DNA of 63,849 bases, the filler included. It is 4 parts of 4 records of this genome, joined end to end, with 100 filler letters (N's around TTAATTAATTAA, not from the genome) between each part and the next. Parts side by side here need not be neighbours in the genome. Positions count along the whole stretch, not along the records: positions 31,891 to 43,271 come from SRR22947725_2347; 3 more parts are not named here. One strand, given 5' to 3'. Below the pieces are notes generated by a model. It did no database searches, had not been told where the DNA came from, and saw only the letters and a list, made by a program, of their open reading frames with translations. The position numbers and the translations under genes were made by a program. Below are positions 31,791 through 58,695 of this stretch, in pieces; the stretch's first letter is position 1, and each line of letters starts with the position of its first letter.

Positions 31791-31890
31791 NNNNNNNNNN
31801 NNNNNNNNNNNNNNNNNNNNNNNNNNNNNNNNNNTTAATTAATTAANNNNNNNNNNNNNNNNNNNNNNNNNNNNNNNNNNNNNNNNNNNN
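31791..31890. other. Artificial contig spacer
   Basis: N run - TTAATTAATTAA - N run; abrupt AT-rich to GC-rich switch. Confidence 0.99.
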
Positions 31891-32434
31891 ACAGCGAGCC
31901 CGGACTGGACAGCGAGCCCGACCACGTCGATGTCCCAGCTGTCAGAGAACCCAGCCTCGTCTCTGTCCTCCTCCCCGCCAATTCCAGCGCCAACCCCGAC
32001 GGCCCCGGTCTCACCGCCATCGATGAGATTTACGTGGTCATCCTCAATCCCCAGAATACCTTCAGCACCTATGCGTGCCAGCTGCCAAACAAGCGTGCCC
32101 TGGTGGTCTAGGTGGAATCCCTCCCGAAGGGAACCCGAACCGATGTGCATATCTCGTGATGTGCATGTGTGCCCCCGTCCCTGGACCATGTACTGAGAAC
32201 GCGTGTGTCTTCTCGTACTGTTTGTAAATTTCCATCCCATGGAAAGGCCCAGTTGGAAAGGCGATGAGGATGGCCCTACGGCGATCCTGGCCAGAGCAGG
32301 GCCATCATCCAGCCACTCCACGCATTGGGGCGATTTGTCGCGCTTCCTGCCGGAAATTCCTCCACAGTTATTTTTGATTCTTTCAAACAGTTCCGTTCGT
32401 TCGTCCATTCCTCCAGCACGAGCGTACATTCGAG

Positions 32435-36234: not shown

Positions 36235-37177
36235 ATGGCCGTTGGAAAGAACAAACGTTTGTCGAAGGGGAAGAAGGGAGGAAAGAAGAAGCAGTACGTT
36301 GTTGGAGATCGAAGGGGCTGCAGGATGTGTCGATTTGGCTGCTGGGCGGGAGGTCGGCTTCCCGGCCACGCCCTCTGATCACGGTGAATACCGCCTCGAC
36401 CCGCTCTGACGGCCATCCTCACATATGTCGTCCGTCGTTTTTCTCGATCGCAGGCAGGATCCGTTCGCCAAGAAGGACTGGTATGACATCAAGGCGCCGA
36501 CCATGTTCAACATCAAGAACATCGGGAAGACGCTGGTCACCCGTACCCAGGGAACGAAGATTGCTTCAGATGGACTCAAGGGACGTGTTATCAACGTTTC
36601 CCTGGCCGATCTGCAGAAGAACGAGTCCGATGCTCACCGTAACATCAAGCTGCGTGTGGAGGACGTTCAGGGCCGCAACTGCCTGACCAACTTCTACGGA
36701 ATGGACCTCACCACGGATAAGCTGCGCTCTCTTGTGCGCAAGTGGCAGACGCTGATTGAGGCGCACGTTGATGTCAAGACAACGGACGGATACTACCTGA
36801 GGATGTTCTGCATCGCGTTCACCAAGAAGCGCCAGGGACAGGTCAAGAAGACCGCCTACGCGCGTTCTTCGCAGATTCGCCAGATCCGTGCCAAGATGGT
36901 GGAGATCATGACTAGAGAGGCTACCAGTTGCGACCTGAAGGAGCTGGTCGGCAAGTTCATCCCGGAGGCCATTGGAAAGGAGATTGAGAAGGCCTGCCAG
37001 GGAATCTACCCCCTGCAGAACACCTTCGTCAGGAAGGTCAAGCTTCTCAGGGCCCCGAAGTTCGATGTCCAGAAGCTTATGGAGGTGCACGGAGACTACT
37101 CTCAGGAGGTTGTCAGCGAGGTGATTGAGAGGCCGGCCGAGGAGGTTGTCGGCATGGAGACTGCCGCTGAGGAGTAA
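36235..37177 (+). CDS. RPS3A: 40S ribosomal protein S3a (eS1); exons 36235-36293, 36454-37177
   Basis: [33 protein letters not shown]. Confidence 0.97.
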
Positions 37178-37468
37178 GTGCCGGAGTTCGGAGGATGTTA
37201 TATTTATATGAAGTAACAAACAAAGATAAACAAAGATAAAGTTCGCGGTCGGCGTGGGCGTGAAGATCCCCGTCGTTCTCGTCGCGCGTGCTGTGACCGG
37301 GCACGTGCAGCCGAATGGACCGTCGCGACTTCTACGCGACTCCTACGCGACTCCTACGCTTCGCCTGCGTGTGGGGACTAAAGTCAGAGGGGTCGACGAG
37401 CTGGCGCGGGCGTTCTGCAAAATCGGGAACACTGGGACGATGGTAGGCGCTTCAAAAATCACATCCGG

Positions 37469-37557
37469 GCTGCGTTCAGAGTGGTGCATGAATCAACGAT
37501 TTCAGCATTATATACTCAGAACAGGTCTGTGGTGATTGTATCTCATCACAACGCAGC
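37469..37557 (-). ncRNA. Box C/D snoRNA, double guide: 18S Gm1428 (snR56/U25-like) and Gm1271 (snR40/U32-like), yeast numbering
   Basis: C GTGATGA, D' and D CTGA, 8-bp terminal stem GCTGCGTT/AACGCAGC; guides antisense to AACAGGUCUGUG and GUGGUGCAUG; targets from D+5 rule. Confidence 0.9.
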
Positions 37558-37752
37558 ATGTGTTTTCATCGGATTCCAGGCGTCAGCCTAGAATCGACGC
37601 GCATCGCATACCTCTGTGACGGACGAGCCTCGGGACCTTGGCAATTGGCGCCAAGCTCTCAAGACGGTCCCGGGCTCGCACGGCCGTCAGCCGCCCAAGT
37701 GGCAGCAGAGGAATCTCCGAGTTACCTGCAAAGTGTGGGGACTAAAAGAGGG

Positions 37753-37988
37753 GGGACGTCAGTGCATGAGTAAGCCCCATTCTGTTCACGAACGAGCACA
37801 AGATGTGCTCGCCGCTGGCCACATAACTGTTTTCATGGCAAACTGTCGCAGCGCCGTGGATCGGCAGCTACAAGTCTTCTCCTCGCGGAGTGGCACTCTC
37901 TGCCTGGTTGCCCGGGGACTTTCTCTCAGCAATCTCACCGTCGTGCAAGCACGACAGATACGCCGAAGTGGCCCTACGCACTGCGCCC
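37753..37988 (-). ncRNA. RNase MRP RNA
   Basis: CR-I GAAAGTCCCC (37923-37914), P8 GGCAGAGAGTGCC with GARAR loop (37904-37892), CR-V AACAGAATGGGGCTTAC (37786-37770), P1 GCAGTGCGT/ATGCACTG, P2 GGCCAC/GTGGCC. Confidence 0.92.
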
Positions 37989-38104
37989 GTACCTGATATC
38001 CCAATGAGTAGAAGTCATAGGAGTGATAGGAGTGATAGGAGTGAATCCTCCTACTCCCATCGCTATGAAACAATCAGACGAGCAGTCACGACAGCATGCG
38101 CATC

Positions 38105-38187
38105 GACGCCATCAGATAGTGGTGCATGTTCCAAATTCATCCCGAATCAGGTTGATTGTATATGGATTGGTCATCTTCACCGACGTC
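38105..38187 (-). ncRNA. Box C/D snoRNA guiding 18S Um1269 (snR55/U33-like)
   Basis: C GTGAAGA, D'/D CTGA, terminal stem GACGTCG/TGGCGTC; D guide antisense to GUGGUGCAUG, D+5 = U. Confidence 0.8.
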
Positions 38188-38319
38188 AAAGCGTGCCAGA
38201 ACCCGCTGAAACTTCGAGTCGTGGCGACCCGCGCACATACCTGCAACAGGACACGCGAGTCAGTCGGCAAGTGCCAAAGTCGAAAACAGCGAGCCGACCA
38301 CGACAAGCATACAACAATC

Positions 38320-38418
38320 GGCCGTTCCCTCAGTTCAGGTCTCCAAAATATTTCCTCCACACAAGCATACGCTTTCAGTAGAACGAAAGTTATTTTTTTC
38401 GCATCACCGGGAACGGCC
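38320..38418 (-). ncRNA. Box C/D snoRNA, double guide: 18S Am974 (snR54/U59-like) and an LSU G in UCAGGUCUCCAA
   Basis: 10-bp terminal stem GGCCGTTCCC/GGGAACGGCC, C GTGATGC; guides antisense to AGAACGAAAGUU and UCAGGUCUCCAA. Confidence 0.88.
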
Positions 38419-38446
38419 TCGCACGCAGCACCGACAACGTCACACG

Positions 38447-38548
38447 ACCGTGGCATCAGTTGAAAGTATCGTCTCATAGGCCTATTAGAGACCTCTGAAG
38501 GTGTCCTAAGATTTTTGCTATGTGATTTCGTCCTCATGTGCACACGGT
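38447..38548 (-). ncRNA. Box C/D snoRNA guiding an LSU U in GCAGGUGUCCUAAG
   Basis: C ATGAGGA, D' CAGA, D CTGA, ACCGTG/CACGGT stem; 14-nt guide antisense to AGGUGUCCUAAGAU. Confidence 0.8.
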
Positions 38549-38619
38549 GACTGCGTGGACCACCGCACCGTCGGCAGGGCCGGGTCACCCGTCGCCAGAC
38601 ATCGAATCGGTCGAATCGG

Positions 38620-38713
38620 AAGGTCAGATAGAACGCAGCGATTGTAGTGTCATCTCAAAGACATCGATTCAGATACTATCTAGCGAGATATGAGACATCG
38701 ATCGTCATTCCTT
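38620..38713 (-). ncRNA. Box C/D snoRNA, double guide: 5.8S A43 (yeast numbering; plant snoR9-like) and LSU UACUAUCUAGCGA element
   Basis: C ATGACGA, D'/D CTGA; guides antisense to AGAACGCAGCGA and UACUAUCUAGCGA; long flanking inverted repeat 38582-38600 / 38741-38763. Confidence 0.85.
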
Positions 38714-39161
38714 TGATTCCACCCATTCTTGATTGACTGCGTCTGGCGACAACCGGTGACCCCGCCCTCTCCCTCTCCCGGCAGTTTAGATCGACGCACC
38801 TGTTCATTCCTTTATGACCATTCTTTTGCTCATTATCGCATATGATTGTTTGATACGCGTCTGACAGACCGCGTCTGACAGACCGCGACTGATAGAACCT
38901 GGATTCCGAGAAACAGCGGTTGTCAGTATGTATCAGCCTGGCAACCTGAGATGGACACCAGCACCCACCACAGAACAGTGCACCAGACAGACCAGCTCAC
39001 TCTCGTCAGTGTTACAGGGACGTTTCTACCCCGATGGTCTAGACAGGGCGACGCACGGAGAAATAACTGACTTGGTTCGCCCGGCTGGCCTGTCTGGAGA
39101 GCGCACACGCATGAAGAGGAAGGGGCAAGCGCCGGGCATGCGCCCGGACCACGACCCGGTA

Positions 39162-39239
39162 TTCCCTCAGGAGCTTGCTAGTTATCTTTCAAAGTATAAA
39201 CTACTCAGTTCTCAAAGATTAAGATACCATCCTCGGGAA
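39162..39239 (-). ncRNA. Box C/D snoRNA guiding 18S Cm38 (plant snoR66-like); second guide has no identified target
   Basis: TTCCC/GGGAA stem, degenerate C box, D' and D CTGA; 14-nt guide antisense to UCUCAAAGAUUAAG. Confidence 0.82.
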
Positions 39240-39454
39240 AGGGGCGCATCCGGTTTGGCATGACGATTTCAAGCCCTGCCACTGAAGGCCACGAAGGCCG
39301 TTTGGCATCATTGGGGCAGTCACGACATGGACATATACGTACTCTATAGACTCGACATATCGCACGATAGTTTAAACTCTGGTTTCGAAGTTTCTCGCCA
39401 GTTTTTTCTTGTCAGATTGACAGTCGCAACGTTTCCCCGTCGACGTCCCATACC

Positions 39455-56355: not shown

Positions 56356-58695
56356 TCACATACCGTGCAGCAACACCTTGCCGATGACCACTGCTGCCAG
56401 GCCACTCAGGCAAACCACCACCACCGTCGAGTCGATCGCGCCCGCGCCGAGTCCGCCCCCGAGTCCGCCCCCGAGACCACCTCCGAGTCGGTCGCCGAGC
56501 GCGCCCTCGATCGCCCCCTCGACGAACGAAACCAACGATGGAGGCAGACCATCCCTGACTGATATCCACATCTGATGTAACCTGAGCCAGGATACGGCGA
56601 GCGCGCCCGGTAAATACCCCGAACCATGCATGGCTTGCTCGTAGTGTCTCTGGGCGAGCTGCAAGTCCTGGGGCAAGCCGAGCCCGTGCTCGTGCATGTA
56701 GCCCAGGTTGAACGAGGCCCGCGCAATGTTCAGCTTAGATGCTGCTTTGTACATGTCGGCCGCCTTTTTCAGGTCGACCCCCGTGCCCCTTCCGTACCAG
56801 TAGGCGTCGCCGAGAGGGACCAGGGCGGCGTGATTGCCCTGAACCAACGACCACTTGTACATCCGGGCCCCCAGCTCGGCCGCCCCCTCGCCCCCGTATC
56901 CCAGTCCGCTGCTAATCATCCACGCAGCGTTGTGCTGGGCAAGCTCGACGCCCGCGTCGGCGGCGCGCAGGTAGTTGTACAGCGCCCAGCTATAGTCGCC
57001 TGCTGCAAAGTCCGCTGTCGCCTCGGAAAGCGATCCCCAGCCCCGCTCTGCGACGTTCTTCAGCAGCTTGACGGCCCGTTCACAGTTGTCGCCGCGCGCC
57101 AGCAGCAGCCCGGCCAGGTCGTAGGAGGCCAGCAGGTGGCCGAGGCGGGTCGCCCCTTCCAGCCACTGCACCCCCTTGGCAGCATCCTTGGGCGTGCCCC
57201 AGCCCATTAGGGTCATGAAGCCTGCAAAATGATTGAGCGAACGTCCGTTGGGCTGGTAAGAATGGCAAAAAGTCAGCGCTACCGACAGGATTTGAACCTG
57301 CGCGACTCTCGTCAGCGGATGGCACGACGTCGTTCCACGGATTCGAAACCGGGATGCGTTCAAGTCCGCCCCCTTAACCACTCGGGCACAGCAGCACCAG
57401 TGAGTCCAGAGGAATTTTCGGGCCGGGTGGGTCACGCGGAGGCCCTCGGCGGTCGTCGAGCCACCAACGACGAAAACGACAAGGAAGCGAAAATGCAACG
57501 ACGGGGATCACGTGCCTGCGTAGAAGAACGCATCCGACCTGCCCGGCCAGTCTTTGTCGATGGAGATGGCCTGAGTGAAATACTGCACCGCCTTCTGGTG
57601 GTCGACATGGACACCCTGACCGTTTAGGTACATGACGCCGAGCCCGAACAGCCCACTTGGGTGGCCCTTTTCGGCGGCCTTCAGGAACCAGCTCCTAGCA
57701 GTCGAGTTGTTCTGGGCGACGGCGATGCCGCTCGCATACGCATGTCCAATATGCGCCATGGCGGCCCCGTCGCCCATGTCAGCAGCCTGCATCAGGTACT
57801 CGAGGGCGGCGCCGAGGTCCTGCTCCTCCCCATGTATGAGCAGGTGCGCCACCGCCTTGGCGGCCTCCGCATGTCCGTGGTCTGCGAACCACTGGTAGTG
57901 GAGCATCTCCTGTTCCACGGTCGGCACGGGCTTGATTCCGTCCGTCGGCCTCCTGTCGAGGAGGCGGGCCGCGTCGTCGACTGGAAGCCCGCCCTCCATC
58001 GCGGCGGAGTGGATTACTCCGGAAGCCACGGCCTCGTAGTAGATCACGGCCGCGTGGCAGCTTTTCTCGACGCCGATGCCGTACAAGTGCCGGAAACCGA
58101 GCGCCATCTGCGCCACCGGGTCCTCCGCCTTGGCCGAGAACAGATAGTGCAACATGGATCGGTCGAGGTCGGGCTCCCGCAGGACGAACATGATGTCGTC
58201 CCTGTTCTGCGCGACGGGCTCGATGCCCATCGCGTACATGGTCGCCAGATCGCACTGAAACTCGGCGACCCCTGCCGCAGCCAGCTCGCGCACAAGCTTG
58301 TGCGCGATGGCCGGATTGATGGGCGCGCCCGTCCCGCTCCGAAACGCGTACACAAGCTCCCGCACGGCTTCAATGTGCTGAATTTTCCCGTGCCTCCATC
58401 GGACCTCGACGTCGTCCGCCGTATGAAAGGTGGCGTTTGGGTTGGACGACGTGTTCATCGACAGGTGCACCACGCCGGCGGCCGCGTACAGCTCGTGGAT
58501 CGACCGCTTCAGGTCCTCCTTGTTCTTTGTCATGACGGGCCCTCCCAGTGTGTCGTCCGTGTCGTCCGTTGAGACGAACCGCAGCGACATGGCTCGCTCG
58601 TACAGGTCCTGGGCGCGGTCGTACTCGGCAGCCTCTCTTTCCTCGCGCTCATACTCGTCCTCATACTCCTCGTCCTCCTCGTCCTCCTCGTCCTC
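56356..58695 (-). CDS. SEL1L/HRD3 ERAD component (Sel1 repeats, C-terminal TM); GC-AG intron 57515-57222; 5'-truncated
   Basis: AQMALGFRHLYGIGVEKSC, LAQHNAAW, FNLGYMHEHGLGLPQDLQLAQRHY; splice restores FYA|GFMTLMGWG repeat. Confidence 0.88.
57277..57395 (-). tRNA. tRNA-Ser(UGA) with a 38-nt intron (57358-57321)
   Basis: Acceptor GCTGCTG/CGGTAGC, D arm GCCCGAGTGGTTAAGGG, anticodon arm GCGGA-CTTGAA^A-TCCGC, long variable arm, GGTTCAAATCC, G73, downstream TTTTT. Confidence 0.92.

Follow-up and report, generated by a model that had tools for sequence, protein, structure and literature searches.

The RNA of RNase MRP is regarded as the product of a free-standing gene, which RNA polymerase III (Pol III) transcribes in plants and animals and RNA polymerase II (Pol II) in budding yeast. 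A 63,849-nucleotide (nt) stretch of DNA (hereafter the window) raises the question of how this RNA is made when it is encoded within an intron. On the minus strand of the window, at 37757..37986, we identified an RNase MRP RNA enclosed by GT..AG borders, and these borders are used in RNA and conserved among related algae. The host is a non-coding transcript with C/D small nucleolar RNAs (snoRNAs) in its other introns. Our results suggest that the MRP RNA is probably made from the excised intron, as the RNase P RNA of insects is.

Identification of the MRP RNA

A search with the Rfam model RF00030 (RNase_MRP) gave a match over the full model (1-266/266) with 93.3 bits against a gathering score of 50 and an E value of 1.1e-24. 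CR-I GAAAGUCCCCGG, the GCAGAGAGUGC loop (GAGAG), ACAGUUAUG and the AAUGGGGCUUA block were all present in the RF00030 alignment. Across 22 related sequences, the elements that we take to be CR-I, the GARAR loop of P8 and CR-V (the names are assumed, the letters are those of the alignment) were invariant or nearly so, together with the AAUGGGGCUUA block. The initial annotation had read a complete MRP RNA from the minus strand and had pointed to the Rfam model as a check, and the match bears this out.

Comparison of 22 related introns with RNAalifold gave 34 consensus pairs, 19 of them with compensatory changes on both sides. Such changes were found in P1 (alignment columns 10-17/352-360) as well as in P2 (columns 20-27/275-283); strands of P1 such as GUGGGGCACC/GGUGCCCCAC and GUAGGGUACC/GGUACCCUAC differ on both sides. 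The MRP intron of the window was predicted to adopt a single closed fold (-103.4 kcal/mol, z -3.3), whose closing helix would begin at intron base 5 and stop 13 bases short of the intron end. P1 starts at intron base 1 in 13 of the 22 introns, at base 3 in one, at base 4 in one and at base 5 in seven, base 5 being the start in the clade of the window. Pairing of a leader with its own tail was 0.78, compared with 0.67 for the tails of other introns, and 155 of 20000 permutations reached the observed value. The difference is modest and therefore carries little weight.

Splice sites of the MRP intron and their use in RNA

The MRP RNA nearly fills its intron. The local order on the minus strand is ..GATATCAG|GTACGG-[MRP]-CACTGACG-TCCCCCCTCTTTTAG|TCCCCACACTTTGCAG|GTAAC.., made up of the following features.

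37742..37992, minus strand: MRP intron, 251 nt, GT..AG, with a 6-nt leader and a 15-nt tail (joint 37993->37741)
37757..37986, minus strand: RNase MRP RNA, Rfam RF00030, full model
37987..37995, minus strand: 5' splice site CAG|GTACGG, cut 37993/37992, read from the sequence and used as donor in an RNA contig
37758..37762, minus strand: CTGAC, candidate branch site in the 3' strand of P1 (sequence and Rfam alignment)
37742..37756, minus strand: tail TCCCCCCTCTTTTAG, a pyrimidine tract and the main acceptor TTTTAG (four joints; conserved in relatives)
37726..37730, minus strand: alternative acceptor TGCAG (a single X3 contig of depth 2.3, which joins 38800 to 37725)

From the splice cut, the start of the closing helix is 4 nt away and the start of the Rfam match 6 nt. 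The candidate branch A, 37759, is the bulged A of P1, and 17 nt separate CTGAC from the AG used as acceptor (37743-37742); a second candidate would be the A of a CUUAC at about -33. A donor CAG|GTACGG at 37992, an RNA beginning 4 nt after it and a CTGAC (37762-37758) overlapping the 3' strand of P1 had all been proposed in the initial annotation. The donor is present and used, the closing helix starts at the proposed distance, and the overlap is seen in both sequence and alignment, with CTGAC kept as a candidate for the branch.

Evidence from RNA was taken from public Logan contigs of four runs (X1-X4) aligned to window 37150-39450. Such contigs show neither RNA ends, strand nor level, 5' chemistry and lariats are invisible in them, and the parts that they leave uncovered are uninformative; contig depth and cover were not used for ranking RNA levels. 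The joints, all read on the minus strand, were as follows.

37992..37742: X4, a single contig of depth 8.2; matches the MRP intron exactly
38240..37742: X3; also removes the MRP RNA
38799..37742: X3 and X4; also removes the MRP RNA
38799..37726: X3, depth 2.3; also removes the MRP RNA
38799..38241: X3 and X4
37611..37365: all four runs; downstream snoRNA intron

All joints except one (at 38883-39340, described below) had GT..AG ends when read on the minus strand, corresponding to CT..AC on the plus strand. The acceptor at 37742 serves four of the five joints that remove the MRP RNA, with donors at 37992, 38240 and 38799. This result modifies the initial annotation, in which TGCAG at 37726 was the acceptor and 37993 was expected to be joined to 37725. 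The joint from 37993 was indeed found, but its partner is 37741, and 37725 is joined only to 38800; TGCAG is thus used in one contig, while the main acceptor is TTTTAG. A 70-nt exon (38062-37993) had also been proposed upstream of the intron. Its donor is used, whereas no joint was found at the proposed acceptor, the AG of which is changed (T>C, 38064) in three of the four runs. The short side of the joints at 37741 measures just 27 letters, and the contigs seemingly end at a polymorphism at 37712.

Conservation of the locus in the Picochlorum clade

The MRP RNA locus is carried by an algal contig with a G+C content of 58% (window 31892-63849). The ribosomal protein S3Ae encoded downstream of the locus was 99.2% identical to a protein of 'Picochlorum sp. 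RCC944' and 92% identical to two other Picochlorum proteins, and the exact S3Ae sequence clusters with named Picochlorum proteins. The best named match of a CYP97B gene upstream of the locus was from Parachlorella (74%). These protein matches place this marine green alga in the Picochlorum clade, within the Trebouxiophyceae. A prasinophyte (Ostreococcus), which had been guessed as the source from the marine runs, was ruled out by the S3Ae matches to Picochlorum.

A motif scan of metagenome contigs gave 77 loci, ten of which were from the clade of the window. One of these (L011) was near-identical (97%), and seven belonged to a sister lineage (84% over the intron and its splice sites). The two more distant loci, L061 (76%) and L007 (73%), had S3Ae proteins closer to those of P. 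oklahomense and BPE23. In all ten loci, which represent four lineages, the U59 snoRNA is found upstream and S3Ae downstream. Between the four lineages only the snoRNAs and the MRP RNA can be aligned, and the spacers, that is the mini-exons, are unalignable. In all four lineages the identity on the 5' side starts exactly at AG|GTA(A/C)GG, and on the 3' side it stops after CACTGACGTCCCCCCT(C/T)TTTT..AG, a pyrimidine tract with its AG; the MRP RNAs in between are 73-93% identical. No box resembling an upstream sequence element (USE) or a TATA box was common to the 60 nt upstream in the four lineages, as judged without a reference promoter of the organism. This agrees with the earlier claim that the RNA has no recognisable promoter of its own, as nothing upstream of AG|GT is shared.

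MRP introns in other algal lineages

We examined how far the layout extends among the scanned loci. Matches to RF00030 were present at 75 places in 67 of the 77 loci. After removal of the truncated L009 and L063 and the partial L002, the 72 matches and the window gave 52 distinct sequences, which formed 29 clusters, here called lineages, at 88% identity. AGGT with its GT 3-6 nt before the Rfam start was found by script in 16 of the 29 clusters, and in 17 when a cluster with an adapter-fused scripted representative is judged by its other members. The fusions, in L003 (1-41) and L038 (1-34), are assembly artefacts in which sequencing adapter is joined to the 5' part of the MRP RNA, and they distorted one scripted representative. 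At random places in the fetched loci, AGGT occurred in the same 13-nt window in 3.6% of cases (binomial P 3e-16, a value that overstates independence because the 29 lineages share ancestry).

The whole-intron layout was present in 19 of the 29 clusters, counting one case with AGGC and one with CC|GTGAGT, so that the GT...MRP...AG arrangement, which the initial annotation had suggested looking for in other chlorophyte genomes, is found in environmental lineages. The intron-like loci measure 251-340 nt from the donor to the first suitable AG; the leader accounts for 3-6 nt of this and the tail for 7-36 nt. The tails up to the first AG are poor in G (21 G in 220 letters, compared with a background of 30%). 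In 11 of the 16 AGGT-positive clusters there was no run of at least four T within 40 nt downstream, and termination by Pol III therefore cannot explain those lineages. The other ten of the 29 clusters were not intron-like and several of them had T runs, which indicates that ordinary genes, too, were within reach of the scan. Among the intron-like lineages, L006/L014/L065 represents the haptophyte Chrysochromulina parva, as an open reading frame (ORF) on L065 was 100% identical to a protein of this species over 279 residues.

Two further arrangements were observed among these loci. In one MRP lineage (L017, L022, L031, L052, L060 and L075) the signals are reversed: the RNA is immediately preceded by a pyrimidine tract and CAG, and it is followed after 7-8 nt by G|GTATGT or G|GTGCGT. 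Going by these motifs, it is as if the MRP RNA were an exon, or as if a donor site fixed its 3' end. A Meckelin gene is present on L060, and the organism is therefore probably flagellated. Tandem triplets of the MRP RNA occur in L050/L056/L074, with copies about 460-470 nt apart, and in L034. Every copy in L050/L056/L074 has its own CAG|GTA .. CCCCAG|GT borders; the copies in L034 have no donor site, and T7-T9 runs follow two of the three.

The host transcript and its surroundings

Concerning the host, the only minus-strand ORF of at least 50 amino acids in 37180-39450 overlaps the snoRNAs, and no credible ORF was found there. A contig from the 3' part of the host was present in X2, an oligo-dT library. 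The features outside the MRP intron are as follows.

36425..37177, plus strand: ribosomal protein S3Ae gene, convergent to the host gene and marking its 3' limit
37365..37611, minus strand: next intron, GT..AG, with its joint in four of four runs; 93% identity in the sister lineage
37470-37556, minus strand: C/D snoRNA, SNORD33-type, 41.4 bits, below the gathering score of 44
37612..37741, minus strand: exon, 130 nt, non-conserved, bounded by joints and not alignable with relatives
37993..38240, minus strand: upstream segment, an exon or part of a larger intron, with a C/D snoRNA and a polymorphic 9-nt repeat
38106-38186, minus strand: C/D snoRNA, SNORD33-like, 31.8 bits, below threshold
38241..38799, minus strand: intron, GT..AG, with joints in X3 and X4; holds the U59/Z159 snoRNA and two conserved blocks
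38324-38414, minus strand: U59/Z159 snoRNA, snoZ159 58.9 bits against a gathering score of 39
38800..38882, minus strand: upstream exon of the host, with joints on both sides in X3 and X4
38926..39237, minus strand: two conserved RNAs further upstream in the host gene, the 154-nt block and a snoR66-like C/D snoRNA, with 89% and 80% identity in the sister lineage
39163-39237, minus strand: snoR66-like C/D snoRNA, 40.8 bits, gathering score 43

The segment upstream of the MRP intron is seen in two forms: an X4 contig joins 38800 to 38240 and continues to 38017, and the X3 joint removes 38240..37742. Just upstream of the MRP intron, at window 38012-38045, is a tandem repeat of 9 nt (TCACTCCTA-like) whose copy number varies by strain, with a 9-nt insertion in X1 and three extra units in L011; the insertion lies about 26 nt before the MRP RNA. 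In the metagenomic locus L051 (2290-2540), a short MRP RNA of 199 nt is followed, no more than about 15 nt further on, by a C/D-box-like RNA, which shares the guide element CATGCACCAC with the two SNORD33-like snoRNAs that flank the MRP intron of the window.

Three conserved blocks on the minus strand, 38926-39078 (154 nt), 38453-38541 and 38622-38690, display 74-89% identity in sister lineages and matched no Rfam family at E values up to 1. Probably they represent additional snoRNAs from this host, and the 154-nt block, which ends in ACATACTGACA, may be of the H/ACA type.

At 38241/38240 (minus strand, TTGCAG|GTATGT) an acceptor abuts a donor with no exon between them. The AG at 38241 is used as an acceptor (38799..38241 in X3 and X4) and the GT at 38240 as a donor (38240..37742 in X3), and the site looks like a recursive-splicing site or a zero-length exon. 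Recursive splicing was rejected as the general reason why AG|GT follows many acceptors, because CAG|..|GT is the usual consensus on the exon side. A joint at 38883-39340, seen in X3 and X4 at a depth of about 17, leaves out 458 bases, including the snoR66-like snoRNA and the 154-nt block. Its ends are non-canonical (AC..GG on the minus strand, CC..GT on the plus strand) and a 14-nt direct repeat lies alongside; an artefact, unusual splicing or a deletion in the strain could each account for it.

The remainder of the window includes a transfer RNA (tRNA) gene at 57277-57395 on the minus strand, with a 40-nt intron and an Rfam score of 44.2 bits; ARAGORN found no tRNA in the window. This gene is followed by CTGACTTTTTG, a T5 run, which is the only Pol III terminator available for comparison. 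Window 31792-31891 is an N/TTAATTAATTAA/N linker with two unrelated contigs on its sides. The contig on the far side (window 1-31791) has a G+C content of 30% and tightly packed genes in bacterial-type operons, which encode a PutA with a DNA-binding domain, an S41 peptidase, argininosuccinate lyase and fatty-acid oxidation proteins.

How the MRP RNA is made

The claim that an MRP RNA nearly fills a spliceosomal intron of a snoRNA host, which was at the core of the initial annotation, is upheld by the RNA joints, the conservation in four lineages and the layout in 19 of 29 lineages. In the reading that we consider probable, the host would be transcribed by Pol II, and the MRP intron would leave the transcript as a lariat, which debranching would turn into a linear RNA bearing a 5' monophosphate. 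A leader of 4-6 nt and a tail of 12-15 nt would then be trimmed, if at all, to P1, which would be shielded by the MRP proteins. With little or no trimming to P1, the 5' splice cut would set, or nearly set, the mature 5' end. P1 would pair the start of the intron with the region of the candidate branch A, and one promoter would supply both the ribozyme that cleaves ribosomal RNA (rRNA) and the guides for rRNA methylation.

Several points weigh against formation from the excised intron. The joint that corresponds exactly to the MRP intron comes from one contig of one run, and its short side of 27 letters is below the 30 letters at which caution begins. The X4 record is labelled 'probably DNA', although the library is complementary DNA (cDNA). 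Contigs from X1, X2 (oligo-dT) and X3 retain the MRP intron while the next intron is removed, and therefore either excision is incomplete or another transcript exists. A TTTT run stands 10 nt after the MRP RNA in the window (37747-37744), within the tail, where it can alternatively be read as a Pol III terminator; the sister lineage has it at the same distance, and two further relatives have T7. The MRP RNA of Ostreococcus tauri (Ot-MRP) was described as intergenic, monocistronic and, from its T-stretch, probably a Pol III transcript in the available part of the report (Bousquet et al. 2020, PMC7671301). Contigs could show neither the mature ends (5' or 3') nor the 5' phosphate state or lariats, and the statistics over lineages carry the excess of independence mentioned above. 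Finally, the copy number is judged from contigs, and a second, free-standing copy may exist.

We weighed three other explanations. One is that nucleases cut or trim the RNA from the unspliced host precursor and that splicing is a side reaction. Unspliced contigs are common, since record 2 of X1 spans 38017-39370 and the MRP region is covered by such contigs in X1, X2 and X3. Several introns of the host also carry more than one conserved RNA, and some nuclease-based separation must therefore occur. Polycistronic snoRNAs of plants and yeast are released by endonucleases and exonucleases, and polycistronic snoRNA clusters are described for O. tauri in the accessible part of the same report (PMC7671301). 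However, processing of this kind leaves unexplained why 19 of 29 lineages have a donor 3-6 nt ahead of the RNA and an acceptor 7-36 nt behind it, and why 13 of 22 introns have a P1 that starts with their very first base. In addition, no conserved stem of the RNase III type was found outside P1. We regard this explanation as rather unlikely.

Another is a nested, independent gene, with signals inside the host from which Pol III would transcribe it, as in plants and vertebrates, and with its end at the T run; host splicing would merely remove the region. A type-3 Pol III gene, the kind that encodes plant and vertebrate MRP RNA and U6, would be expected to carry a USE or proximal sequence element (PSE) and a TATA box at fixed upstream spacing, and a T run right behind the RNA. 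The T4 run in the window and the sister lineage, the T7 runs of the two relatives and the T5 after the tRNA gene of the window are in line with this, as are the unspliced contigs over the MRP region in three of the four runs and the Pol III interpretation of the O. tauri RNA from its T-stretch (PMC7671301, as far as its available part goes). On the other hand, the four lineages share no USE/TATA-like element in the 60 nt upstream, and conservation starts only at AG|GT. The 9-nt insertion about 26 nt upstream occurs within a species, which a spacing-dependent promoter should not tolerate, and 11 of the 16 AGGT-positive lineages lack a run of at least four T. An independent gene would also give no role to the fixed GT 3-6 nt before the RNA, nor to a P1 formed on the first bases of the intron. 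Tobacco acid pyrophosphatase (TAP) converts triphosphates too, and because of this the 'not capped' status of the O. tauri RNA fits a processed 5' end with a monophosphate better than the triphosphate of a Pol III transcript. A nested gene is thus unlikely.

That the intronic sequence is a silent copy, with the working MRP RNA of the cell coming from another locus, is very improbable: the evidence does come from contigs rather than a whole genome, but the match is full-length and high-scoring with compensatory changes among relatives, and all ten loci of the Picochlorum clade correspond to one syntenic locus, the 77 loci containing no other type from this clade.

Comparison with known intronic RNAs

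In non-coding snoRNA host genes of the UHG/GAS5 type, non-conserved mini-exons stand between introns with one conserved small RNA each, and in mirtrons the splice sites are at or adjoin the ends of a structured RNA. The algal locus resembles the former in its mini-exon layout and the latter in having splice sites at or beside the ends of a structured RNA. It differs in its cargo, a ribozyme subunit of 230-250 nt rather than a guide RNA of 70-150 nt or a mirtron hairpin of 60 nt. Unlike in UHG/GAS5 introns and mirtrons, the candidate branch site lies inside the closing helix of the RNA itself.

A precedent exists in insects and crustaceans, where RNase P RNA is encoded in an intron (Manivannan et al. 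2015, PMC4287351; Palsule et al. 2019, PMC6797745); the following is limited to the parts of these papers available to us. In insects, maturation of this RNA from its intron requires splicing and debranching, with Rat1/Xrn2 trimming the 5' end and the exosome the 3' end (PMC6797745). As in the alga, a catalytic RNA of the P/MRP family is found in an intron; its host is a Pol II gene and it lacks Pol III signals, as would also be the case in the alga on the reading above. The insect host intron is spliced slowly, which fits the retained-intron contigs of the alga. The cargo in insects and crustaceans is RNase P RNA and the host is protein-coding, whereas the algal cargo is MRP RNA and the host is non-coding with snoRNAs. 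The insect intron is about twice the length of its RNA (701 versus 353 nt in the D. virilis reporter intron), with long flanks that are trimmed; the algal intron is merely 4-21 nt longer than the MRP RNA. In the insects, MRP RNA keeps its Pol III signals in 26 of 26 species surveyed (Manivannan et al. 2015, PMC4287351), and both papers stress that it did not switch into an intron (PMC4287351, PMC6797745).

Among algae, one stable intronic RNA of the red alga Cyanidioschyzon merolae is annotated as RNase MRP RNA in a preprint of December 2025 (bioRxiv 10.1101/2025.12.01.691491). There too, in the part of the preprint available, an algal MRP RNA is inside a spliceosomal intron alongside intronic C/D snoRNAs. 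This alga belongs to a different phylum, and the preprint gives a single sentence and a figure category, deferring the details to a later paper; in that available part we found no statement on the host gene, the fit of the intron, an overlap of splice sites with P1 or other lineages. Our literature search for intronic MRP RNA returned this sentence only; Piccinelli et al. 2005 and Davila Lopez et al. 2009 were outside its scope and may give gene context. The earlier statement that no description of such an arrangement in algae was known therefore has to be qualified by the C. merolae sentence. A Candida paper on RNAs 'located in an intron' was discarded as a precedent, as it concerns snoRNAs and not MRP.

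Ot-MRP is 246 nt long, was detected by northern blotting and is uncapped, libraries with and without TAP being similar (Bousquet et al. 2020, PMC7671301). Going by the accessible part of that report, it resembles the RNA of the window in being of similar size, in coming from a green alga and in being followed by a T-stretch, and the snoRNAs of O. tauri are mostly intronic or clustered. No intron is mentioned there for Ot-MRP, and O. tauri is of the class Mamiellophyceae, different from that of the alga studied here.

Implications for MRP RNA biology

What is new here, supported but not proven, is an intron-encoded MRP RNA that fills its intron, resides in a non-coding snoRNA host and recurs in distant algae; an intron-encoded RNA of the P/MRP family was already known. 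A broader view, which we put forward tentatively and hold with less than even confidence, is that whole-intron MRP RNAs might be widespread and possibly ancient in very different algae (Chlorophyta, a haptophyte and, according to the available part of the preprint, a red alga). The spliceosome would then make the mature 5' end. P1 would be formed from the first intron bases and the branch/3' region with its bulged A as the branch point, so that folding and splice-site recognition would compete or cooperate. The Pol III-type genes of plants, animals and fungi would in that case be one solution among several and not the ancestral rule.

If its MRP RNA is made from the excised intron, the locus would offer a natural system for studying the assembly of a large structured ribonucleoprotein on an intron, and formation from the intron would explain the retention of some introns in very compact genomes. 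For annotators it is a caution that genes for MRP or P RNA without Pol III signals are not to be rejected or misplaced, and it suggests a fresh look at the published Pol III inference for Ostreococcus. If the MRP RNA is indeed made from the excised intron, the helix that forms its ends overlaps splice signals, it is co-expressed with rRNA methylation guides from one promoter, and two or more distant groups of algae would need both the spliceosome and the debranching enzyme to make an essential ribozyme of ribosome biogenesis.

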